The notes below the pieces were generated by a model. The model saw only the letters and a list, made by a program, of their open reading frames with translations, ran no database searches and had not been told where the DNA came from. Positions 3,818 through 55,186 of a stretch of DNA of 64,000 nucleotides are shown piece after piece (the first letter of the stretch is position 1; every line of letters starts with the position of its first letter). Origin of the DNA: Escherichia phage vB_EcoM-RPN226; sequence record OL770073.2. The stretch is one strand, 5' to 3'. A program made the translations under genes and the position numbers.

Positions 3818-3871
3818 TTTACTTTACCACAAGGATGTGGTATAATTAATTGGGCAAATGAGGACATTGAA

Positions 3872-7241: not shown

Positions 7242-7436
7242 ATGTTAGGTTATCAAGCACGAGTAAAAGAAGAATACGATCAATTAATGCTCAAAATTAA
7301 TGCACTGAGCAAATTTTTAGAAAGCGCAAAGTTTCTAACAGTTAGTGCAGTTGAGCAAGAACTGTTACTTTCACAGTTCATCTCAATGAAATCTTATGCT
7401 GAATGTCTAGAGAAAAGAATTGCACAATTCAAATAA
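7242..7436 (+). CDS. hypothetical protein
   Basis: 64-aa ORF flanked by UUCG hairpins. Confidence 0.45.
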   Translation: MLGYQARVKEEYDQLMLKINALSKFLESAKFLTVSAVEQELLLSQFISMKSYAECLEKRIAQFK

Positions 7437-7438
7437 AA

Positions 7439-7462
7439 TAAGGGCTTCGGCCCTTTTGTTTT
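7439..7462 (+). terminator. intrinsic terminator
   Basis: AAGGGCTTCGGCCCTT hairpin followed by TTTGTTTT. Confidence 0.6.
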
Positions 7463-7521
7463 AAGAGAAATTATGATTTATTATATGAATATCAGTGATT
7501 CCGGCATAAAGGAAAGTTTAA

Positions 7522-8079: not shown

Positions 8080-8096
8080 AAATTTTCACAAAACGG

Positions 8097-8125
8097 TTTA
8101 CATACCACAAGGACTGTGGTAATAT
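8097..8125 (+). promoter_or_regulatory. T4-type early promoter
   Basis: TTTACA, 17-bp spacer, TAATAT, then conserved ACAACTATCAACTG leader and GGAG RBS. Confidence 0.65.
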
Positions 8126-8159: not shown

Positions 8160-8366
8160 ATGTTTACTACAGCTGAATTAAAACGAGCAAAAGCTAAGAA
8201 AGGGCAAGGAAAATATAAAGCTGAATTAGTTAAAGAACTTCAGTTTGCTGAGGCTGAATTGAATTCAATGATTATTCAAAATGCTCCAGAAACTGAAATT
8301 GCTCTTAAGCGTATTGCGAATAAGTGTCTTCGTGATGCAATCGTCGATCTTTTAGCGGATTATTGA
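8160..8366 (+). CDS. hypothetical protein
   Basis: 68-aa ORF behind the early promoter and RBS. Confidence 0.5.
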   Translation: MFTTAELKRAKAKKGQGKYKAELVKELQFAEAELNSMIIQNAPETEIALKRIANKCLRDAIVDLLADY

Positions 8367-8584
8367 GTAAAATGAAAATCGTTGAGATTGAACTATGAGT
8401 TCATTATGGTGGTGTTTTGTTTGGTTAATTAGTATTCCAGTAATTTGTTTAACATTTACTTTTGTAATGAGGTTATTATGAAAATTTTGAATTCTGTACT
8501 TATTGCTTGTGCGTGGTGGGTTGCACAAGTTTCAGCGGTAGTAGTTGGTATTCACATTTATTACGAATATTTTTAAAAAAGTTG

Positions 8585-8613
8585 TTTACAAGACTGTTCC
8601 TCTATGGTACTAT
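8585..8613 (+). promoter_or_regulatory. T4-type early promoter
   Basis: TTTACA, 17-bp spacer, TACTAT, conserved ACAACTATCAACT leader. Confidence 0.65.
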
Positions 8614-8641
8614 ACAACTATCAACTACGGAGGAACAGAAA

Positions 8642-8755
8642 ATGAAAAAGATTATTAAAGCTATATGGAATGTAGTTATAATACTAATAGTTTTGAGTAT
8701 ATTCCCAATCGTTTTAATGATTGATGTATTAAACGTTTACTTTGGATTTATGTGA
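8642..8755 (+). CDS. small hydrophobic membrane peptide
   Basis: 37-aa ORF, one predicted transmembrane helix. Confidence 0.4.
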   Translation: MKKIIKAIWNVVIILIVLSIFPIVLMIDVLNVYFGFM

Positions 8756-19976: not shown

Positions 19977-21092
19977 TTAAACTTCTCTAAATTCTTGCCC
20001 AAACACTTTACCAGTTTTAGACGATGCTTGCGTAGGAAGTACCATTATATCTGGAGGTGAAGCAGATTCACAGACATAATTAACTCGAATACCATTGACG
20101 CCAAATTCAGCAGGTTTTGAAATTCCGCCATTTCTTGATACTTCAGAAAAGCTTAAATTTCTCATGCCGCCTTGACCAGCTTGAGCAGTTCTTTGTGCAT
20201 ATATCGTAAATCCTACTGCATTTTCTGGAATAACTACATAATCTTCCTTTAATTCCCACGACCCAGCCTGTCCAGTAAACTCAGCATGTGTTGAAGAAAT
20301 ATATCCATTCGATTCATCATAAAAACGGATAGATATATTTGTAGTTCCAAGCGCAAGTAAATCGGCATCAGCATATAACTGCGCTTTAAGATAAAGAACA
20401 TCACCAGGAATTAAATTATAATCAGAGAGTTTACTTATCGCGGATGAAGTTGGTAAACGTGCAATTTCGTTATTAGTTCCACCAACTGCTGACATAAATT
20501 GTTCAACGCTTTCATATGTTCTTTTAGGAAATCCTGTAGCTCCAACGTCTTCTAAACTGTCAAATACAACATCTAAAATAGTTTGATAATCGTCTGTACT
20601 TTTTCTATTACTTAGTTTAACATGTTCTAATGCAATAGCTCTTTTAGAAGAAGTATAAAAGGCAGCATATGATACGTCAAATCTTGACAATATAGAATCA
20701 GATGGAAAAGCAGACGTTCCCGCGGATCTTAGCCAAGATACTACCTCAGGAGGAAAATTAACCTTTCCACTGGTTAATATAGCAACAAGTCTGTTGTTTG
20801 AAAAAGAATTCATGAAACTGACAAAAGCAGCTGATGTAGTATCGTTTGAAGTCGAAAAAGCATATGACTTACTATCAACTAATGCTCCTGTAGAAGGGTC
20901 AAAAACTCTTAGATGAAGTCCTGCGCTAAATGTTTGGCTTCCGATAGGATTATCCTGAAATTTAACATATGGTCCTGCTGTAGAAAGCGGGCAAGAACCC
21001 GCTATACTTATTTTATATCTTACTGAATTACTTTCCGATAAAAATGGCGTTTGGACATATCCTTGTCCAAACTCTGCCATAAATTTTTCCAT
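19977..21092 (-). CDS. 35: long tail fiber hinge protein gp35
   Basis: 371 aa; synteny. Confidence 0.8.
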   Translation of the reverse strand: MEKFMAEFGQGYVQTPFLSESNSVRYKISIAGSCPLSTAGPYVKFQDNPIGSQTFSAGLHLRVFDPSTGALVDSKSYAFSTSNDTTSAAFVSFMNSFSNNRLVAILTSGKVNFPPEVVSWLRSAGTSAFPSDSILSRFDVSYAAFYTSSKRAIALEHVKLSNRKSTDDYQTILDVVFDSLEDVGATGFPKRTYESVEQFMSAVGGTNNEIARLPTSSAISKLSDYNLIPGDVLYLKAQLYADADLLALGTTNISIRFYDESNGYISSTHAEFTGQAGSWELKEDYVVIPENAVGFTIYAQRTAQAGQGGMRNLSFSEVSRNGGISKPAEFGVNGIRVNYVCESASPPDIMVLPTQASSKTGKVFGQEFREV

Positions 21093-28292: not shown

Positions 28293-28317
28293 TTTCAAAA
28301 TTTTTTTCACAAAACTG

Positions 28318-28346
28318 TTTACATCTCTGTTCTTCCATGGTACTAT
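28318..28346 (+). promoter_or_regulatory. T4-type early promoter
   Basis: TTTACA, 17-bp spacer, TACTAT, conserved ACAACTATC leader. Confidence 0.65.
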
Positions 28347-28654: not shown

Positions 28655-29041
28655 ATGGAAATCGGCAAAAAATACGAGTTAAATCCACATCGTATTAAAT
28701 CTTTCATTGATATTAGCTCATCAAATGCTAATATGGTCGGCATCATTCAAGAAAATGGTGGTTGGTTTGAAGTTAAATCAATATCAAATTTAGATGGCTT
28801 TGATTATGTAACCGAAATCATTTGTGCTAATGGCGAAATCTATAATGATGATGGTATGGGTGATGATTATTTTGAACTTAGTGAAGAAGAGTTTTATTGT
28901 TTCCGCGAATATAAAGAACCGACTTCTGAAGAAGATGAAATCGAAGACAAGGTTTCTGGCGTAACAAAAATTCACTGCATTGTTGACGAAAACAATGTAG
29001 ATGAAATTATTGAACTTTTGCGAAAAACTTTCAAAAAGTAG
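28655..29041 (+). CDS. hypothetical acidic protein
   Basis: ORF from ATG 28655 with GAGGAAA RBS. Confidence 0.5.
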   Translation: MEIGKKYELNPHRIKSFIDISSSNANMVGIIQENGGWFEVKSISNLDGFDYVTEIICANGEIYNDDGMGDDYFELSEEEFYCFREYKEPTSEEDEIEDKVSGVTKIHCIVDENNVDEIIELLRKTFKK

Positions 29042-29070
29042 TTTACAGAAGGGTAGTAGTGTGATACTAT
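29042..29070 (+). promoter_or_regulatory. T4-type early promoter
   Basis: TTTACA, 17-bp spacer, TACTAT. Confidence 0.55.
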
Positions 29071-29095
29071 TACCCTATCAATTAAGGAGAATAAA

Positions 29096-30479
<1,384 letters not shown>

Positions 30480-37277: not shown

Positions 37278-38865
<1,588 letters not shown>

Positions 38866-38869
38866 GCTG

Positions 38870-38898
38870 TTTACAAGTCCCTCGTGTTGTGTTATAGT
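38870..38898 (+). promoter_or_regulatory. sigma70-type promoter within repeated cassette, copy 1
   Basis: TTTACA, 17-bp spacer, TATAGT; a 55-bp segment nearly identical to 50967-51021. Confidence 0.55.
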
Positions 38899-38926
38899 AG
38901 ACTTACTGACATAACATGAGGACTTT

Positions 38927-39433
38927 ATGATGGATTTACAGCTTATTACTACTGAAATGGTCGTTGAAGCATACGGTGATACCACGGATGGGATTTCTGT
39001 ATTTAAAGGAAATCGTCGAGTTGGATATATCACCGATCTTAAGAAAGATTTAGCTAAGCAAGTCAAGCGGAAAACGACCATTAAAGAATATCGAAATCGT
39101 CGTCTTGAGCAAGCCCGTGATATGCTTCCTGATGCGGTTGAAGAGATGAAAGTCTTTTTAGAAAATCAACTCGCTAAGTATGATTGTGAAGTATTCATTA
39201 ATCAGACTCAACCCAATGTTCATATCAATAGCTGCAAATGCTATATCATCGTTAATCCTTTAACGGGAAAACATCGTCTTGGAATTAGTAATCCAAATCG
39301 TAGCGCATCAGATATGGCAGAAGATGTTGAGACATGCTTTAAAATTTCTAAATCTCCAGCTGAACATCACATTTTAATTAACGGTCTTTCTCAAGACGAT
39401 ATTATAGAGGTTATTAAAACTTTATGCATGTAA
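38927..39433 (+). CDS. alc: probable Alc (blocks elongation on cytosine-containing DNA)
   Basis: 168 aa at the syntenic position after rnlA. Confidence 0.65.
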   Translation: MMDLQLITTEMVVEAYGDTTDGISVFKGNRRVGYITDLKKDLAKQVKRKTTIKEYRNRRLEQARDMLPDAVEEMKVFLENQLAKYDCEVFINQTQPNVHINSCKCYIIVNPLTGKHRLGISNPNRSASDMAEDVETCFKISKSPAEHHILINGLSQDDIIEVIKTLCM

Positions 39434-42187: not shown

Positions 42188-42249
42188 TGGTTTACTTTAT
42201 GGTAGAGTTGTGATATTATAGCTCTACCAAAACAAATGAGGAAAACAAA

Positions 42250-42486
42250 ATGCTAAGTGAAAAACCAATTACTGTTAAAGAATTCCAAGAAAAAGTTAAA
42301 CTATTTGCTCAGGAATTGGTAAATAAGGTTTCTGAACGATTTCCAGAAACATCGGTTCGTGTTATTACCGAAACTCCTCGTTCAGTATTAGTAATTGTGA
42401 ATCCAGGTGATGGTGACCAAATAACACATCTCAAATTGGATTTTGATGGATTAGTTGAAGCACAAAGGGTGTATGGCGTACTATGA
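42250..42486 (+). CDS. hypothetical protein
   Basis: 78-aa ORF with GAGGAAA RBS. Confidence 0.45.
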   Translation: MLSEKPITVKEFQEKVKLFAQELVNKVSERFPETSVRVITETPRSVLVIVNPGDGDQITHLKLDFDGLVEAQRVYGVL

Positions 42487-45340: not shown

Positions 45341-45362
45341 TCCAAAGATTTGCATAAAGTTG

Positions 45363-45391
45363 TTTACAGTATAGTTCCTTTGTGATAGTAT
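45363..45391 (+). promoter_or_regulatory. T4-type early promoter
   Basis: TTTACA, 17-bp spacer, TAGTAT; GGAG RBS before the ATG at 45419. Confidence 0.55.
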
Positions 45392-45418
45392 TATCTTACA
45401 CAAACAAAGGAGAATAAA

Positions 45419-45679
45419 ATGAAAACGATTAATCTGAACGCCACAGTTAAAACTAAATGCTTCAATGGTAAATATGATGAAACTATGTGGTTCTTAATGG
45501 CAGTTGAAGGTGATATTATTGAAGTAGCGATCCAAAACAGGGGCTTTCGTGATGCATTACAAGCCTCGAAAGGAAAAGTTTTGAAGCACAGCATGGCTAG
45601 TTGTCTAACAAAAGATGATACAATACTAACCGAAGCTGAATTTATTGATGTGTTAAACCTATTAAGAGACTCTCTATGA
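45419..45679 (+). CDS. hypothetical protein
   Basis: 86-aa ORF. Confidence 0.5.
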   Translation: MKTINLNATVKTKCFNGKYDETMWFLMAVEGDIIEVAIQNRGFRDALQASKGKVLKHSMASCLTKDDTILTEAEFIDVLNLLRDSL

Positions 45680-46548
45680 AGCCAACTATTTTAACTGATA
45701 TTGATGGAGTATGTTTAAGCTGGCAATCAGGCCTTCCTTATTTTGCTCAGAAATATAATCTTCCGTTAGAACATATTTTAAAAATGATCCAAGATGAGAA
45801 ATTTATTTCTCCAGGTAAACTCTTTAATTGTGATGAAGAACTTGGCGTCAAGTTAATTGAAAAATATAATCGATCAGATTTTATTCGTTACTTGTCTCCA
45901 TATAAAGATGCTCTGTGTGTAATTAACAAATTAAAAGAAGATTATAATTTTGTAGCTGTTACAGCACTGGGTGATTCTATTGACGCTCTGTTGAATCGTC
46001 AATTTAATTTGAATGCTCTTTTTCCTGGTGCCTTTTCAGAAGTACTGATGTGTGGTCATGATTCTTCAAAAGAAGAGTTGTTCAAAAAGGCAAAAGAGAA
46101 ATATAACGTAATTTGTTATATTGACGATCTCGCTCACCACTGCGATCACGCGAGTGAAATATTAAATGTTCCAGTTTATTGGATGGCTCGAGGAGAGCGT
46201 GACAGTATTCCAAAAACTGCACAGCGAGTTTATACATGGAATGATGTAGAAAATAAGCTTTTTTCGCCGAAGGAAAATAAAGAAAGTTTTGATAGTGAAA
46301 AAGCTATAAAAGATGTAATTGAGAAGATGGTTAAAAACGATTCTTTTCCTTGGAACACTACCTGGAGAACACCTGGATTTAATCCGTATAATCCATATTA
46401 TACACATCCATATAATCCATATAATCCATATTATACACACCCGTATCATATGAATCCATTCCATACGTGGAGTTATACTAAGCCTGGTGATGCAGGGTAT
46501 TTTAATAGATTTACTAGTGGTGATAATATTTTCCAAGGAGCATTCTAA
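45676..46548 (+). CDS. HAD-like hydrolase with C-terminal Tyr/Pro-rich repeat tail
   Basis: 290 aa; N-terminal DIDGV motif; C-terminal NPYNPYYTHPY repeats. Confidence 0.55.
   Translation: MKPTILTDIDGVCLSWQSGLPYFAQKYNLPLEHILKMIQDEKFISPGKLFNCDEELGVKLIEKYNRSDFIRYLSPYKDALCVINKLKEDYNFVAVTALGDSIDALLNRQFNLNALFPGAFSEVLMCGHDSSKEELFKKAKEKYNVICYIDDLAHHCDHASEILNVPVYWMARGERDSIPKTAQRVYTWNDVENKLFSPKENKESFDSEKAIKDVIEKMVKNDSFPWNTTWRTPGFNPYNPYYTHPYNPYNPYYTHPYHMNPFHTWSYTKPGDAGYFNRFTSGDNIFQGAF
46381..46446 (+). repeat. tandem 2 x 33-bp coding repeat built from AATCCATAT 9-mers
   Basis: AATCCGTATAATCCATATTATACACATCCATAT followed by AATCCATATAATCCATATTATACACACCCGTAT. Confidence 0.8.
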
Positions 46549-48275: not shown

Positions 48276-48460
48276 AAGCTTACTTAGAAACAATTGTCGT
48301 GGCTCAAAAAGAAGGTGGAGATGTTTCTACTTCTGTATCACAAATCGTTCTCGAATTTGTAGATGCATATGCTTATAATAAATTTACAGAAACATTTGAT
48401 GCCTATGAAAAAGGGCCAAAGTTTGAAATATACCGTACTCTCTTACCATTAGATTATTAA
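48272..48460 (+). CDS. hypothetical protein
   Basis: 62-aa ORF, ATGA-coupled to ligase. Confidence 0.45.
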   Translation: MKAYLETIVVAQKEGGDVSTSVSQIVLEFVDAYAYNKFTETFDAYEKGPKFEIYRTLLPLDY

Positions 48461-48480
48461 AGGCCTTCGGGCCTTTAATT
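48460..48480 (+). terminator. intrinsic terminator hairpin (UUCG loop)
   Basis: AGGCCTTCGGGCCT followed by TTAATTTT. Confidence 0.6.
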
Positions 48481-48512
48481 TTATAAATAGAATAAACACT
48501 AGAGAGGATATG

Positions 48513-50606
48513 ATGGAACTTATTACAGAATTATTTGACGAAGATACTACTCTTCCGATTACAAACTTAAATCCAAAGAAGAAAATACCGCAAATTTTTT
48601 CAGTTCATGTTGATGACGCAATTGAACAACCAGGCTTTCGTTTATGTACCTATACATCTGGAGGTGATACTAATCGCGATTTAAAAATGGGCGATAAAAT
48701 GATGCATATTGTTCCTTTTACATTAACTGCTAAAGGTTCAATTGCTAAATTAAAAGGTCTCGGTCCAAGCCCAATTAATTATATCAATTCAGTTTTTACT
48801 GTTGCAATGCAGACGATGCGTCAGTATAAAATTGATGCCTGTATGCTCCGTATTCTTAAGTCTAAAACTGCTGGTCAAGCTCGACAAATTCAAGTTATTG
48901 CTGATAGACTTATCCGTAGTCGTTCAGGTGGCAGATACGTCCTTCTTAAGGAACTCTGGGATTATGATAAAAAGTATGCATATATTCTTATACATCGCAA
49001 AAATGTATCACTAGAAGACATTCCAGGAGTTCCGGAAATTAGTACCGAGCTCTTTACTAAAGTTGAATCGAAAGTCGGCGATGTTTATATCAATAAAGAT
49101 ACTGGAGCTCAAGTAACTAAAAATGAGGCAATTGCTGCATCTATTGCGCAAGAAAATGATAAACGTTCTGACCAAGCTGTAATCGTTAAAGTTAAAATTT
49201 CCCGTAGAGCAATTGCGCAAAGTCAGTCATTGGAATCTTCTAGATTTGAAAGCGAATTATTCCAGAAGTATGAATCTACCGCAGCTAATTTCAATAAACC
49301 TGCTACCGCTCCTTTAATTCCCGAAGCAGAAGAAATGAAGCTTGGAATTAATTCATTAGCTTCTAAAACTAAAGCAGCAAAAATTATTGCCGAAGGAACT
49401 GCAGATGAACTTCACTATGATTATAAATTCTTTTCAAAAAGTGAGGTTAATGAAGTTTCTGAAAAAATTAAAGATGTAATTCTTAATGCGATTAAAAATG
49501 AACCGACTACTTCAATAAAATGTTTAGAGAAATACGCAGCAGCTGTTAATCAATTATTTGAAGAATATAAAGATAATTGGCTTGATAAACATAATAAAAC
49601 CCGTAAAGGACAGCCAGATGAAGTCTGGGAAGAAATGACTAAAAATTCCTGGAACGCAGCAAAAACTAAATTCCTCAAAAGAATGATTTACAGCTTTTCT
49701 GGAATTGGTGCAGGTCCAATGATTGATATTACTATTGCCCGTGATGGTTCTAAATATACTCCATCACAAAAGCGTGGCATTAGAGAGTATTGTGGTTCAG
49801 GATATACTGACATCAATAATCTTCTTTTGGGTCGTTACAATCCAGAACGATATGATGTAATGAGTGAAAAAGAAATTGAATCTGCGATAAATAATTTAGA
49901 TTCAGCCTTTGAAAATGGTGACCGTATACCAGAAGGCATTACAGTTTATCGCGCTCAAAGCATGACTGCTCCTATATACGAAGCACTAGTTAAAAATAAA
50001 GTGTTCTATTTCAGAAATTTTGTATCTACTTCTTTAACTCCTATCATTTTTGGACGTTTTGGAATTACGCATGCTGGTATTGGTCTTTTAGAACCAGAAG
50101 CTCGTAATGAATTGACAGTTGATAAAAATGAAGAAGGAATAACTATTAATCCAAGCGAAATAAGAGCGTATAAAGAAAATCCTGAATACGTTAAAGTTCA
50201 AATAGGATGGGCAATTGATGGAGCTCATAAAGTTAATGTTGTATATCCAGGAAATCTCGGAATAGCAACAGAAGCTGAAGTTATTCTACCACGCGGATTG
50301 ATGGTCAAAGTTAATAAAATAACTGATGCTTCTAATAATGACGGAACAACATCTAATAATACAAAACTCATTCAAGCTGAAGTTATGACCACGGAAGAAC
50401 TCACCGAATCAGTCATTTATGACGGTGACCGTCTAATGGAAACCGGTGAAGTAGTTGCAATGACAGATGATATTGAAATAGAAGACAGAGTTGACTTTGC
50501 ATCATTTGTTTCATCAAATGCTAAACAAAAAGTAGAATCATCTCTTGGAATTATTGCGTCTTGCATAGATATTGCAAATATGCCTTACAAGTTCGTTCAA
50601 GGATAA
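48513..50606 (+). CDS. alt: ADP-ribosyltransferase Alt (packaged, modifies host RNA polymerase)
   Basis: 697 aa from MELITELFDEDTTLPITNLNPKKKIPQIFSVHVDD... Confidence 0.85.
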   Translation: MELITELFDEDTTLPITNLNPKKKIPQIFSVHVDDAIEQPGFRLCTYTSGGDTNRDLKMGDKMMHIVPFTLTAKGSIAKLKGLGPSPINYINSVFTVAMQTMRQYKIDACMLRILKSKTAGQARQIQVIADRLIRSRSGGRYVLLKELWDYDKKYAYILIHRKNVSLEDIPGVPEISTELFTKVESKVGDVYINKDTGAQVTKNEAIAASIAQENDKRSDQAVIVKVKISRRAIAQSQSLESSRFESELFQKYESTAANFNKPATAPLIPEAEEMKLGINSLASKTKAAKIIAEGTADELHYDYKFFSKSEVNEVSEKIKDVILNAIKNEPTTSIKCLEKYAAAVNQLFEEYKDNWLDKHNKTRKGQPDEVWEEMTKNSWNAAKTKFLKRMIYSFSGIGAGPMIDITIARDGSKYTPSQKRGIREYCGSGYTDINNLLLGRYNPERYDVMSEKEIESAINNLDSAFENGDRIPEGITVYRAQSMTAPIYEALVKNKVFYFRNFVSTSLTPIIFGRFGITHAGIGLLEPEARNELTVDKNEEGITINPSEIRAYKENPEYVKVQIGWAIDGAHKVNVVYPGNLGIATEAEVILPRGLMVKVNKITDASNNDGTTSNNTKLIQAEVMTTEELTESVIYDGDRLMETGEVVAMTDDIEIEDRVDFASFVSSNAKQKVESSLGIIASCIDIANMPYKFVQG

Positions 50607-50609
50607 ATC

Positions 50610-50795
50610 ATGGAACTTATTACAGAATTATTTGACGGCGCTTCGGCGCCGGTTGTTAACTTAAATCCTAAGCATAAAATACCACAAATTTTTGCTATTC
50701 AAGCCGGCGAAGAAAGCGTGCTTCCTAGATTTAGATTTTGTACATACACCTCTGGCGGTGATACGAATAAAACGTTAAGCCGGGCGATAAAATGA
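50610..50795 (+). pseudogene. alt N-terminal paralog fragment, part 1
   Basis: MELITELFDGASAPVVNLNPKHKIPQIFAIQAGEE... parallels Alt residues 1-60; ends at a TGA created by a 1-nt length difference relative to alt. Confidence 0.6.
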
Positions 50796-50995
50796 TGCAT
50801 ATCGTAATGATAGGTGTTAATGAGAAACTATCATTAGTTAAGCTTAAAAACTTGGGTGGAAATCCAATTGGTGTCATTAATGCTGTTTTTGATGCTGCTC
50901 TTCAAACAATGAAACAGTATAAAATCGACGCATGCCTATTACGCGTACTAAAAAGTTCAAAATGTAGTTTACAAGTCCCTCGTGTTGTGTTATAG
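50792..50995 (+). pseudogene. alt N-terminal paralog fragment, part 2
   Basis: MMHIVMIGVNEKLSLVKLKNLGGNPIGVINAVFDAALQTMKQYKIDACLLRVLKS parallels Alt residues ~64-120; ATGA overlap with part 1. Confidence 0.6.
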
Positions 50996-50996
50996 T
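50968..50996 (+). promoter_or_regulatory. sigma70-type promoter within repeated cassette, copy 2
   Basis: TTTACA, 17-bp spacer, TATAGT; near-identical to 38869-38923. Confidence 0.55.
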
Positions 50997-51027
50997 AGTC
51001 TTACTGACATAACACGAGGAACACAAA

Positions 51028-51318
51028 ATGAAATCTTCTTTACGCTTTTTAGGTCAAGAACTTGTAGTTGAAGGCGTTATTCCTGCTGATAATGCTTTTA
51101 ATGAAGCAGTTTATGATGAATTTATCAAAATTTTCGGAACAGATAAAAAGTTTGGAATTTTTCCTTCTGAAAATTTTTCAAAGCCAGAACAGACTGAAAG
51201 TATTTTTCAGGGTGTAGTAACAGGTAAATTTGAGTCAGAAGCTCCGGTAAAAATTGAAGTTTATATTGAAGACAGTTTAGTTGCTTCAGTTGCTGCTTTC
51301 ATTTCATTCCGTAAATAA
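51028..51318 (+). CDS. hypothetical protein
   Basis: 96-aa ORF with GAGGA RBS downstream of cassette copy 2. Confidence 0.5.
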   Translation: MKSSLRFLGQELVVEGVIPADNAFNEAVYDEFIKIFGTDKKFGIFPSENFSKPEQTESIFQGVVTGKFESEAPVKIEVYIEDSLVASVAAFISFRK

Positions 51319-51324
51319 AAATAT

Positions 51325-51346
51325 GGGGACCTTTCGGTCCCCATTG
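51325..51346. terminator. bidirectional terminator hairpin between convergent genes
   Basis: GGGGACCTTTCGGTCCCC between the + ORF ending at 51318 and minus-strand gene 54. Confidence 0.6.
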
Positions 51347-53413: not shown

Positions 53414-55186
53414 TTAATTAACTCCGGTCGCATCAAATACACCAGGAGCAGTCGTGCTCGTTACGGGTGTCATATTATGAACGACAGTATTTTTCTTAAC
53501 AACATTATTAGTATTATTGATCGAAGGAGATGCTTGTTGAACAGGAGCTTGCTGTGCTTTGTTCTTTTCTATTACCTGGACTTGTTTTGCTTCTGGCGAT
53601 TTAGCAGAAGTTTCAGGTTTGGCATTAGGCTGATTTTTCTTGAGCTCTTGATAAGTAGCATCAATTTTAGAAAATCTAGCAGCAAGTTCTTTTTTAACTG
53701 CCGGTGAATTATTTAAATCTGGGTCATCCATCCGTTTTTTAAGGTCTTCATAGGCAGCTTCAACTGATTTAACTGTTGAGTCTTTACTCATATCAGCCGA
53801 ATCAGCATATTTTTCAAAGCGAATCATCGCGGCGCGCGCTTCATTAGCCTTCATTAAAGCATTTTTTCTTTCTTCAGGTGAAAGTTGCTTTAATTTTTCT
53901 TCTTCTGCTGCACGTTCTTCGTCGGTAGTTAGTGCTTCTTTATTATCAACGCCACGAATCCAGTTAGATGCACGAGTTTTCCAGTTCGCAATTTTGTCTA
54001 GTCCTTCTGCTATTGGACCAAGGTCTCCATTCATTCGTTTATCTTGATAATTTGCAACTTTTTCCTGGTCTTCTTTATTGAGAGATGCTCCAGTAGAGTT
54101 TTGGAAATTTTCTAGCGCTCTTCCTTCTACTTCATCAGCGGTATCCTTCATACCAGGAATAACTCGAAGAATTGCCGCAGATAATTTAGCCATTCCAAGC
54201 TGAATAAGTTCTCCTAAATTATAAAGAACCTTTCCAAGCCCTTCTACAATAGCTACTGTCAATCCGCCCCAATCTCCAGCTTCCCAGAATTTTTTAATTT
54301 CATCAATAGAACTAAAGATGCTCTGTAATAAAGGACCCCATGTTCCGGTTTCGCTAGAGAATTTAGTAAAATCTGTACTAAACAAATCCCAAGCCTGTGA
54401 AAATTTATCTGACCAATATTTGAAATGAACCATCAGCAGGTCTATTCCGACAACAACAGCCAATATCATTGCTGTCATTTTAGCAGCTTCAATAGCAGCA
54501 CTGACGGTATACTTAAATAGCATGCTTGATATTTTATCAGTAATTGAAATAGATTTCTTAAATCCGAAATCAACAGTCTTTGTTAATTTATCTAAAGCTT
54601 GAGATAATTTTAAGTTAAATGCGTCTTTTTTCTGTTTTTCTTCTGGTGATTCTTGTTTGGGTTCAACTGGCTGAGGGGTAGGGAAAAAATCAGCATCAGG
54701 ATCATTATTAACTGCTTCAGGAGCTGGTAATAAAGGACCCACAGATTCAGCTGTATCGTCCTCAACAACTTTAACAGGAATAGCGCTTTCAACCGTGGCT
54801 AAACTAGTTCCTGTTTGTTGAATTCCGGCTGTCTGGATTTTTTGCTCGAGTAAACTTGTTAATTTATCTAATTTGCTCCCGAGCGATTCACCGATTTCTT
54901 TATTAATATTATTGCCAATTTCGACAGTTTCAGCAATTAACTCAGAACCGGCAGTAGTATCACTCACTGCGCTTTCTACGTTGTCAATTGCTCCAATTAT
55001 TTCATTCGATTTTTCTTCGACAGTTTGAGCAATTAATTCAGAAGCAGCTTGAGCATCATCCAATTTCGTAGATATATCGTTAAGTCCAGATAAAGTGTTA
55101 GAAGCGGATTTAGCCGCTTCCTGTGTTGGTTTATTATCTGAAATAACTTTTCTACGCATCGTTTGCATTTCTTGTGGCTTTTTCAT
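53414..55186 (-). CDS. 29: tail tape measure / baseplate hub protein gp29
   Basis: 590 aa, largely coiled-coil, Ala/Glu/Lys-rich. Confidence 0.85.
   Translation of the reverse strand: MKKPQEMQTMRRKVISDNKPTQEAAKSASNTLSGLNDISTKLDDAQAASELIAQTVEEKSNEIIGAIDNVESAVSDTTAGSELIAETVEIGNNINKEIGESLGSKLDKLTSLLEQKIQTAGIQQTGTSLATVESAIPVKVVEDDTAESVGPLLPAPEAVNNDPDADFFPTPQPVEPKQESPEEKQKKDAFNLKLSQALDKLTKTVDFGFKKSISITDKISSMLFKYTVSAAIEAAKMTAMILAVVVGIDLLMVHFKYWSDKFSQAWDLFSTDFTKFSSETGTWGPLLQSIFSSIDEIKKFWEAGDWGGLTVAIVEGLGKVLYNLGELIQLGMAKLSAAILRVIPGMKDTADEVEGRALENFQNSTGASLNKEDQEKVANYQDKRMNGDLGPIAEGLDKIANWKTRASNWIRGVDNKEALTTDEERAAEEEKLKQLSPEERKNALMKANEARAAMIRFEKYADSADMSKDSTVKSVEAAYEDLKKRMDDPDLNNSPAVKKELAARFSKIDATYQELKKNQPNAKPETSAKSPEAKQVQVIEKNKAQQAPVQQASPSINNTNNVVKKNTVVHNMTPVTSTTAPGVFDATGVN

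Follow-up and report, generated by a model that had tools for sequence, protein, structure and literature searches.

When a gene has an early promoter of its own and is also read through from upstream, which of the two RNAs is translated? This question is raised by a 54-bp cassette that occurs twice in a 64,000-nucleotide stretch of Escherichia phage vB_EcoM-RPN226 (sequence record OL770073.2; the whole stretch is called the window, and positions refer to it unless another phage is named). Copy 1 lies ahead of alc and copy 2 ahead of alt.-3. The explanation we favor, with a probability of roughly 55%, is that the local early promoter gives translatable RNA, that read-through RNA would be silenced by a hairpin between the promoter spacer and the Shine-Dalgarno sequence, and that copy 2 came from the alc cassette.

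A repeated early promoter with a predicted hairpin over the Shine-Dalgarno sequence

The original prediction, made from the sequence alone, described a 55-bp segment present twice, each time just ahead of the start of an open reading frame (ORF). A search with the repeat string, GTTTACAAGTCCCTCGTGTTGTGTTATAGTAG(A/T)CTTACTGACATAACA(T/C)GAGGA, found exactly two places in the window, both on the plus strand and both with 0 mismatches, compared with 0.00 matches expected by chance (100 shuffles of the window). The copies are 12.1 kb apart and identical at 52 of 54 positions, differing by A/T at repeat position 33 and T/C at repeat position 49. The common block is 54 bp rather than 55, as the base just past it is C at 38923 in copy 1 and A at 51021 in copy 2. 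The features on which the argument turns are as follows.

38869-38922, plus strand: cassette copy 1, from the -35 element to the Shine-Dalgarno sequence, between the rnlA stop and the alc start
50967-51020, plus strand: cassette copy 2, upstream of alt.-3
38870-38898, plus strand: early promoter of copy 1, with -35 TTTACA at 38870-38875, a 17-bp spacer, TGn (TGT) at 38890-38892 and -10 TATAGT at 38893-38898
50968-50996, plus strand: early promoter of copy 2, with the -35 element at 50968-50973 and the -10 element at 50991-50996
38904-38906, plus strand: predicted transcription start of the local promoter in copy 1, placed 6-8 nucleotides (nt) past the -10 box from sigma70 geometry
38875-38893, plus strand: 5' arm of copy 1, which is the promoter spacer and is present only in RNA begun upstream
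38904-38925, plus strand: 3' strand of copy 1 (apical half 38904-38907, main arm 38908-38925), which is the leader of the local transcript and holds the Shine-Dalgarno GAGG at 38918-38921
50975-50991, plus strand: 5' arm of copy 2, within the alt.-2 reading frame
51002-51022, plus strand: 3' strand of copy 2 (apical half 51002-51005, then the main arm), with the Shine-Dalgarno GAGG at 51016-51019

The window is from a Tequatrovirus (best megablast match 97.8% identical; 502 matching records, including T4, T6, and RB phages). With the 54-mer as query, blastn returned 997 places in 499 phage records, T4 among them, at about two copies per genome and all at 92.6% identity or above, so the cassette pair, judged from these genomes, is a fixed feature of Tequatrovirus and not a quirk of one isolate. 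The T4 equivalents are complement(136283..136336) for copy 1 and complement(123040..123093) for copy 2, which differ from each other by 1 base.

Both copies carry the hallmarks of T4-type early promoters, namely a GTTTACA -35 element, a spacer of 17±1 bp, TGn, and a TAnnnT -10 element, and on this sequence evidence they are sigma70-type T4 early promoters. The core GTTTACA-N14-TGn-TAnnnT has 9 matches in the window, both copies included, against 0.02 expected, and all lie on the plus strand, which is the T4 early-transcription strand. The sigma70-type promoter proposed originally (TTTACA, 17 bp, TATAGT) is therefore upheld under a stricter definition; a generic sigma70 scan of the region did no better than chance (60 found, 64.8 expected). 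In phage fPS-90 a "predicted early promoter" is annotated exactly on the -35 to -10 stretch of copy 1. The A+T content of the 30 nt upstream is 67% for copy 1 and 70% for copy 2, where these nucleotides are coding (alt.-2), versus 70-87% for the other credible early promoters of the window.

In copy 1 read-through RNA, RNAfold pairs nearly the whole spacer (38875-38893) with 38908-38925 and caps this stem with a further helix of 4 bp (38896-38899 with 38904-38907); the -10 box falls in the apical region. The predicted structure has about 22 bp and an energy of -24.4 kcal/mol in copy 1 and -24.8 kcal/mol in copy 2 (z = -3.8 and -5.1, respectively; none of 200 shuffles was equally stable), and in both copies the Shine-Dalgarno GAGG is fully paired in the minimum free energy (MFE) and centroid structures. 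An inverted repeat with GAGG in its 3' arm had been noted before; it is present, as the core of this helix, which extends well beyond the 9 bp then described. When MFE was computed in 60-nt sliding frames, the cassettes ranked 3rd and 4th of 21,314 plus-strand frames (mean -8.2, sd 3.6), and the two frames that outrank them each hold two separate hairpins. No Rfam family matched under covariance-model search, which returned only sub-threshold chance hits (e.g., 18.7 bits against a gathering score of 95).

RNA begun at the local promoter is predicted to look quite different. The predicted start (38904-38906) lies 3' of the entire 5' arm, at the first bases of the 3' strand, so the local transcript cannot form the hairpin, and RNA from the predicted +1 is unstructured (-3.2 kcal/mol, z of about 0). 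In silico, then, only read-through RNA folds and the local transcript stays open, as had been proposed. Of the two differences between the copies, the A/T lies in the loop and the T/C exchanges G-U for G-C at one pair, which keeps the pairing by wobble in the way that was expected.

Pairing between spacer and leader across lineages and promoters

For comparison, rnlA-alc junctions were retrieved from other Straboviridae. Pairing of the spacer with the Shine-Dalgarno leader is predicted at alc in seven Tevenvirinae lineages and in 8 of the 10 promoter-bearing phages compared, with arm sequences that differ from one lineage to another (5' arm / 3' arm).

Tequatrovirus alc: spacer pairs with the Shine-Dalgarno leader, as in copy 1
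Gelderlandvirus alc: TCTCCGTTT / AAACGGAGA
Karamvirus alc: TCTCCATTTGG / CCAAATGGAGA
Klebsiella phage K65 alc: TCCTCATCAG / CTGATGAGGA
Dhakavirus alc (2 phages): TCTCCTCATG / CATGAGGAGA
Kanagawavirus IME523 alc: CCCATTTTGTT / AACAAAATGGG
Winklervirus alc: TCCTCATTTTGTT / AACGAAATGAGGA

No promoter of this kind is present at the rnlA-alc junction in the Acinetobacter and Aeromonas phages, nor in Gaprivervirus VR26, where an extra ORF is found instead. This ORF encodes 77 amino acids (aa), is annotated as similar to Alc, and lies between rnlA and alc (460-693 of the junction stretch).

MAFFT aligned the promoters well, but the helices shift by up to 3 columns between genera and no single consensus structure fits. 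Because such shifts preclude column-based covariation, we used an alignment-free test, in which each spacer is paired in turn with its own leader (cognate) and with the leaders of other lineages (non-cognate), and the duplex energies are compared. At alc the cognate mean was -17.7 kcal/mol and the non-cognate mean -11.4 kcal/mol, and 0 of 20,000 permutations reached the cognate mean (p<5e-5). This cross-lineage energy test is the main evidence on selection, and it supports the view that spacer-leader complementarity is itself what is maintained. A protein operator was rejected, given that the arms differ between promoters yet covary inside each.

The same kind of pairing recurs at other early promoters. 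Twelve credible early promoters were compared in the window, copy 1 standing in for its duplicate, copy 2. A cognate-specific hairpin of the spacer with downstream sequence is found at those with -35 TTTACA positions 123, 8585, 29042, 38870, 42191, and 45363. It covers the Shine-Dalgarno sequence at 8585, 38870, and 45363 (weakly at 28318), and the promoters at 3818 and 8097 have a hairpin inside the spacer. Swapping spacers between window promoters weakens the fold (cognate -12.85 vs non-cognate -8.33 kcal/mol, p = 4e-5). In a 50-kb stretch of T4 (6.5-56 kb), three of eight early promoters have strong hairpins, two of which cover the Shine-Dalgarno sequence: that at 8217 before motB.2 (-23.7 kcal/mol) and that at 53942 before nrdC.8. 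In the cognate versus non-cognate comparison the T4 subset gives p = 0.035; over all 20 promoters of the window and T4, cognate spacer-leader complementarity is significant at p<1e-5. One 50-kb stretch of Karamvirus CC31 adds 2-3 of 6 early promoters that pair spacer with Shine-Dalgarno sequence, for example before 30.7 (-22.0 kcal/mol). Taken over the window, T4, and CC31, about one-third of the early promoters studied have such pairing. On these predictions the alc/alt.-3 cassette is the strongest member of a class and not a special case.

Might the early promoters of Tevenvirinae in general be built on spacer-leader complementarity, so that a sizeable share of early genes is translated from their own promoter only? 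We regard this as a tentative proposition, with the odds somewhat against it. Were it true, such promoters would be "self-licensing," the spacer acting as the anti-Shine-Dalgarno or anti-leader strand of the mRNA from its own promoter, with those early genes silent or insulated on abundant read-through middle and late RNA, and a post-transcriptional layer would be added to an early shut-off that is incompletely understood. Promoter, leader, and silencer traveling as a unit of about 54 bp would also explain copying between loci, as from alc to alt.-3.

Individual members of the class are of some interest in themselves. At unrelated genes, the spacer/Shine-Dalgarno design is seen at 8584-8644 and 45362-45421 (weakly at 28317), near 8217 and 53942 in T4, and near 125799 in CC31; arm pairs among these promoters are CTGTTCCTC/GAGGAACAG, TTCCTTTG/CAAAGGAG, TCCTCGGTTAG/CTACTGAGGA, and CTCCGTTGTAT/ATACAACGGAG. 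Other spacers pair with just the initial 10-15 nt of the transcript made from their promoter, leaving the Shine-Dalgarno sequence free (123-200, 29041-29100, and 42190-42250; in T4 near 20611, before dmd). These leader-only hairpins have 13-15 bp and -16 to -22 kcal/mol, and they could form in read-through RNA only. A second type of promoter has a small hairpin inside the spacer (CCACAAGGAnGTGG, GCACAAGGAAGTGC, ACACATGGATGTGT, CACCAAGGAAGGTG; window 3818-3846 and 8096-8125), in which the outer pairs covary and the loop AAGGA resembles a Shine-Dalgarno sequence; this type is also found at alt.-3 in four other genera and at Mosigvirus alc. On an unrelated metagenomic contig (Ga0164243_10008306, 8064-8117) we found GTTTACA AACCTCGGCCTACCTGA TATGAT ... 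CCGAGGAGGA, another early-type promoter, whose spacer CCTCGG is complementary to the Shine-Dalgarno region CCGAGG.

Proposed silencing of read-through RNA and its alternatives

In the explanation that we favor, each copy would be a working immediate-early promoter of T4 type joined to its own leader, and the fate of each RNA would be set by where it begins. RNA begun at the local promoter would have a free Shine-Dalgarno sequence and be translated, and read-through RNA would carry the spacer as an anti-Shine-Dalgarno strand, forming the hairpin of about 22 bp and about -24 kcal/mol that buries the Shine-Dalgarno sequence. The genes and signals concerned are these.

37705-38865, plus strand: rnlA (gene 63), a 386-aa ORF from its first possible start, with the stop codon at 38863-38865
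38927-39433, plus strand: alc, inhibitor of host transcription, with ATGs at 38927 and 38930, the second of which is annotated in T4
48482-48489, plus strand: late-promoter motif TATAAATA upstream of alt (48510-50606)
50792-50995, plus strand: alt.-2, a remnant 67-aa ORF, with the stop TAG at 50993-50995
51028-51318, plus strand: alt.-3, a conserved hypothetical early gene, with its ATG at 51028

The sources of read-through would be the nrdB-denA-rnlA unit, expressed in middle mode, for copy 1 and the late alt unit for copy 2. Upstream RNA is expected to reach the cassettes because there is no terminator between rnlA, whose stop codon lies 4 nt before the cassette, and copy 1; because T4 has middle promoters upstream of rnlA, at 138939 and 139878 (PMC2988021 Table 1); and because a late motif precedes alt. 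Translation of alc and alt.-3 would thus be tied to their own early promoter and would end when early promoters are shut off, despite ongoing read-through RNA. Such early-only synthesis fits the early-protein class of Alc and Alt.-3: time-resolved T4 omics places alc and alt.-3 in the early-RNA/early-protein class and rnlA and nrdB in the early-RNA/late-protein class, while alt is late, and alt.-1 and alt.-2 are "middle" at the RNA level with protein undetected for both (PMC9697503 and its supplement).

A stem of -24 kcal/mol is well beyond the stability known to block initiation. The weaker hairpin of e has an effect of roughly 100-fold (PMC3014915). If left untranslated on read-through RNA, alc and alt.-3 would be exposed to Rho-dependent polarity and decay, so that the element would insulate the downstream unit as well; the part that such polarity plays for early and delayed-early RNA of T4 is treated in PMC2988021. 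What the sequences show is the repeat, its promoter motifs, the predicted fold with its conservation and covariation, and an ancestral alt.-3 promoter of another type; the site of initiation, the block to translation, the effect of Rho, and the conversion discussed below are the parts of this explanation that we infer.

Several observations, one of them given with the origin of copy 2, weigh against this explanation. Copy 2 overlaps the final 29 nt of alt.-2, whose codons extend across the 5' arm as far as a TAG (50993-50995) within the -10 box, near the apex of the hairpin; a ribosome translating alt.-2 would thus melt the stem, and alt.-3 translation would be coupled to that of alt.-2 instead of being blocked. 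At alc, the spacer hairpin of Kanagawavirus PEi20 ends short of the Shine-Dalgarno sequence, and that of Mosigvirus is wholly in the spacer, with the Shine-Dalgarno sequence free. About half of the spacer-leader hairpins stop before the Shine-Dalgarno sequence (123, 29041, and 42190 in the window, 20611 in T4, and PEi20 alc), and the common denominator may be a hairpin in read-through RNA, not occlusion of the Shine-Dalgarno sequence.

Variation within Tequatrovirus belongs here as well. Thirteen cassette haplotypes were gathered from the window, T4, IMG/VR (about 6 relevant genomes), and metagenome contigs. Seven of the nine types of stem substitution retain pairing (C11T, C15T, G16A, G40A, C42T, A46G, and T49C), two break it (C12A and G29A, the latter turning the -10 box into TATAAT), and T27C, G32A, and T33A fall at unpaired positions. 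One stem pair occurs as G-U, G-C, and A-U among the haplotypes. Paired cells amount to 98.8%, but all changes are one-sided and 431 of 500 shuffles do as well. Taken alone, the evidence within the genus is weak, because of these one-sided changes and an uninformative shuffle control. The suggestion that the wobble between the copies hints at selection on RNA structure accordingly gains little from that single G-U pair; what speaks for it is the pairing kept at alc across lineages with different arms.

The absence of double-sided compensatory change within the genus, together with the near-identity of the copies, would suit a neutral relic of duplication, that is, a copied promoter with a functionless palindrome. 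We find this hardly credible. About two copies per genome are kept across the 499 records at no less than the identity given above, the alc hairpin is conserved with different sequences in the seven Tevenvirinae lineages, and cognate complementarity is significant over the 20 promoters; the non-cognate controls, moreover, argue against a shared palindromic promoter consensus as the source of the complementarity.

The position of the hairpin suggests another role, as an element of RNA stability or processing that protects the 3' end of the rnlA or alt message from 3' exonucleases or serves as a processing site. The hairpin begins about 10 nt past the rnlA stop codon and is among the most stable local structures of the window, and intergenic hairpins commonly stabilize upstream mRNA. 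In copy 2, however, it overlaps the upstream ORF, the stems of other genera (13-19 bp) are short for RNase III, and such a role does not account for a 5' arm in the promoter spacer or a 3' arm that tracks the Shine-Dalgarno sequence, all of which makes it very unlikely. The same stem lengths make RNase III unlikely as a general explanation. RegB cleavage is unlikely at the window copies, where the Shine-Dalgarno sequence is GAGG and not GGAG, although other genera do have GGAG.

Origin of the second copy and relation to known systems

Gene order around alt differs between genera. In Gaprivervirus, Mosigvirus, Marfavirus, and two Karamvirus phages, alt.-3 directly follows alt, and its promoter in these four genera has its own GTTTACA, a small hairpin in the spacer (GCACAAGGAAGTGC and variants), and a free Shine-Dalgarno sequence. 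In Tequatrovirus, alt is followed by a partial alt copy (alt.-1/alt.-2) and then by the alc-type cassette. The partial copy is 72% identical to the first ~335 nt of alt (50600-50934 vs 48505-48841), and its detectable homology to alt gives out 32 nt short of cassette copy 2; alt and alt.-1 also share a near-identical repeat of 31 nt at their starts (48510-48540 and 50607-50637). Because alt.-3 has a different promoter in the other genera, copy 2 seems to have replaced an older alt.-3 promoter in Tequatrovirus alone, with the alc copy as its source. The left edge of the repeat is GTTTACAAG and the right edge CATGAGGA, both of which VR20 also has in its alt.-3 promoter of the ancestral type. The most economical account is that, in the Tequatrovirus ancestor, a conversion patch bounded by these motifs, which early promoters share, carried the alc cassette into the alt.-3 promoter.

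The repeat had also been proposed to drive homologous recombination across 12 kb. We saw this past replacement and no sign of ongoing exchange: concerted evolution or continuing homogenization of the copies is not evident in the IMG/VR and metagenome genomes, where variants are mostly specific to one copy and only G16A, C15T, and G32A are found at both loci. Deletion between the copies would not be viable because genes 30 and 31, which are essential, would be lost.

The alc/alt.-3 pair is not the sole duplicated cassette, because there are further near-duplicates at distant loci: AGACTGTTCCTCTATGG vs AGACCGTTCCTCTGTGG (window 8584-8640 vs the T4 53942 region) and TCTCTGTTCTTCCATGG vs AGACTGTTCTTCCATGG (window 28317 vs the T4 27079 region). 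When alc cassettes were searched in their own genomes, blastn gave 4 places in Dhakavirus VR5 (KP007359) and 2 in Karamvirus phages (LT614807 and GU323318, the latter being CC31), and the VR5 alc cassette matches the 45362 promoter region of Tequatrovirus genomes (88.6% over 35 nt). It may be that related leader cassettes have moved from locus to locus and from one genus to another.

Exchange of this kind raises the alternative that the structure matters at the level of DNA, as a hairpin or cruciform or as conserved homology for recombination, cassette mobility, or promoter melting, with the RNA fold a by-product. Copy 2 evidently came from cassette exchange, near-duplicates lie at unrelated loci (e.g., window 8584 and T4 53942), and PeSL crossovers, in the cassettes described below, have been mapped within cassettes and once in the loop (PMC2839356). 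The comparison of strands points the same way and is the remaining point against our explanation: across genera sense and antisense fold about equally, with a mean difference of -0.5 kcal/mol and 6 of 10 favoring sense. In Tequatrovirus copy 1, however, the sense strand folds at -23.8 kcal/mol and the antisense at -14.3 kcal/mol, the sense stem having three G-U pairs that are A-C on the other strand, and four tolerated substitutions make further G-U pairs. Homology alone also leaves the covariation of spacer and leader within promoters unexplained, and loops of 10-21 nt are unfavorable to cruciform extrusion. We judge a DNA-level role quite unlikely and RNA-level selection on the stem likely, if not proven over DNA-level structure because the antisense folds about as well across genera.

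PeSL cassettes of T4-type phages (Arbiol et al. 2010, PMC2839356; Comeau et al. 2014, PMC4122927) consist of an AT-rich region, a strong early promoter, a stem-loop, and a Shine-Dalgarno sequence. They are repeated at several loci and have been implicated in the exchange of adjacent genes (PMC2839356, PMC4122927). The stem-loop is often between -35 and -10 or overlaps -10 in RB49/phi1 (PMC2839356), and in PST/T4 it is drawn just upstream of the promoter, as AGNA-loop-TCNT (PMC4122927). The cassette studied here resembles them in joining an early promoter and a stable stem-loop in one short unit that ends at the Shine-Dalgarno sequence/ATG, and in being present in two copies, the second of which adjoins the alt.-1/alt.-2 rearrangement and replaces the promoter type of four genera. 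It differs in that PeSL stem-loops are regarded as terminators or attenuators, whereas the 3' arm here is leader and Shine-Dalgarno sequence with no U-tract. In PMC2839356 the word "translation" is not used, and none of the five listed PeSL stem-loop positions reaches the Shine-Dalgarno sequence.

By analogy, the cassette could be a PeSL-type transcriptional attenuator or insulator whose stem-loop stops or curbs RNA polymerase coming from upstream and so makes the downstream gene dependent on its own promoter, covering the Shine-Dalgarno sequence only incidentally, on account of a short leader. In a transcriptional fusion, one PeSL stem-loop lowered lacZ expression as far as the rrnB T1 terminator does (PMC2839356), and many members of the class described above have hairpins that leave the Shine-Dalgarno sequence uncovered. 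Yet a U-tract is lacking after the stem in both copies and in the other genera, whose tails are A-rich, and the terminator scan does not list the hairpin; an intrinsic terminator was rejected on the absence of the U-tract. Pairing of spacer and Shine-Dalgarno sequence is also kept at alc in 8 of the 10 promoter-bearing phages. We hold attenuation to be rather unlikely as the primary function. It is partly compatible with silencing of read-through RNA, since Rho acting on untranslated read-through RNA would reconcile the two.

The closest precedent for the silencing itself is the set of T4 genes e, soc, 49, and I-TevI, in which a late promoter lies inside a hairpin that sequesters the Shine-Dalgarno sequence, as shown experimentally (PMC3014915). 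The likeness to e, soc, and I-TevI drawn at the outset extends to the promoter within the 5'-strand region and to short transcripts that lack that strand and are translated, which for the cassette is by prediction only. It does not extend to timing. The promoter of those genes is late (TATAAATA) and translation is delayed to the late period, whereas the promoter of the cassette is early and translation is predicted to be early only, and with an early promoter and reversed timing the cassette is not a strict member of that family. No early-promoter case, and neither alc nor alt.-3, is listed in the 2010 review of T4 post-transcriptional control (PMC3014915). As to T4 early promoters generally (UP / -35 GTTTACA / TGn / -10; Hinton 2010, PMC2988021), the cassettes share the consensus, the orientation, and the presence of early genes downstream; that account notes "additional regions of consensus" whose meaning is unexplained, and spacer-leader complementarity is not described in it. 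Near-identical regulatory sequences at several genes are known from the promoter repeats of T-even internal-protein genes, proposed as crossover points for swaps of adjacent genes (Repoila et al. 1994, as described in PMC4122927), and the description given there assigns them no role in RNA structure. In the accessible literature, which older T4 work lies beyond, complementarity between spacer and Shine-Dalgarno sequence in early promoters is undescribed.

T4 serves as the standard model for the timing of gene expression in phages, and the abrupt end of its early protein synthesis is only partly explained (PMC3014915). If the spacer silences its own ribosome-binding site, conserved early-promoter positions that are unexplained would gain a meaning, and it would become clear how early genes within longer middle and late transcripts stay off later. 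In that case alc would be a tractable test case, as its intergenic element can be mutated without protein change. For synthetic biology, the cassette would be a compact 54-bp part that unites promoter, leader, and read-through insulator. The alt.-3 promoter swap would offer a clean and datable exchange of a regulatory cassette in a genus with about 500 sequenced genomes.

Some features of the surrounding sequence are worth recording. Downstream of copy 2, alt.-3 is the last early gene ahead of the late genes 54/48 on the opposite strand. Between alt.-3 and gene 54 lies a perfect 9-bp GC-rich hairpin, ATGGGGACC TTTC GGTCCCCAT (51323-51344), with T-runs on both strands, which looks like a bidirectional terminator between the convergent early and late units. 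A family of tetraloop hairpins (GGCCTTCGGGCC), each followed by a T-run, is found at 1927-1960, 7436-7469, and 48456-48489, the last directly preceding the late-promoter motif TATAAATA of alt. Finally, a tandem 33-nt repeat (46369-46434; 85% identical) within a 290-aa ORF (45676-46548) encodes a short repeated peptide.

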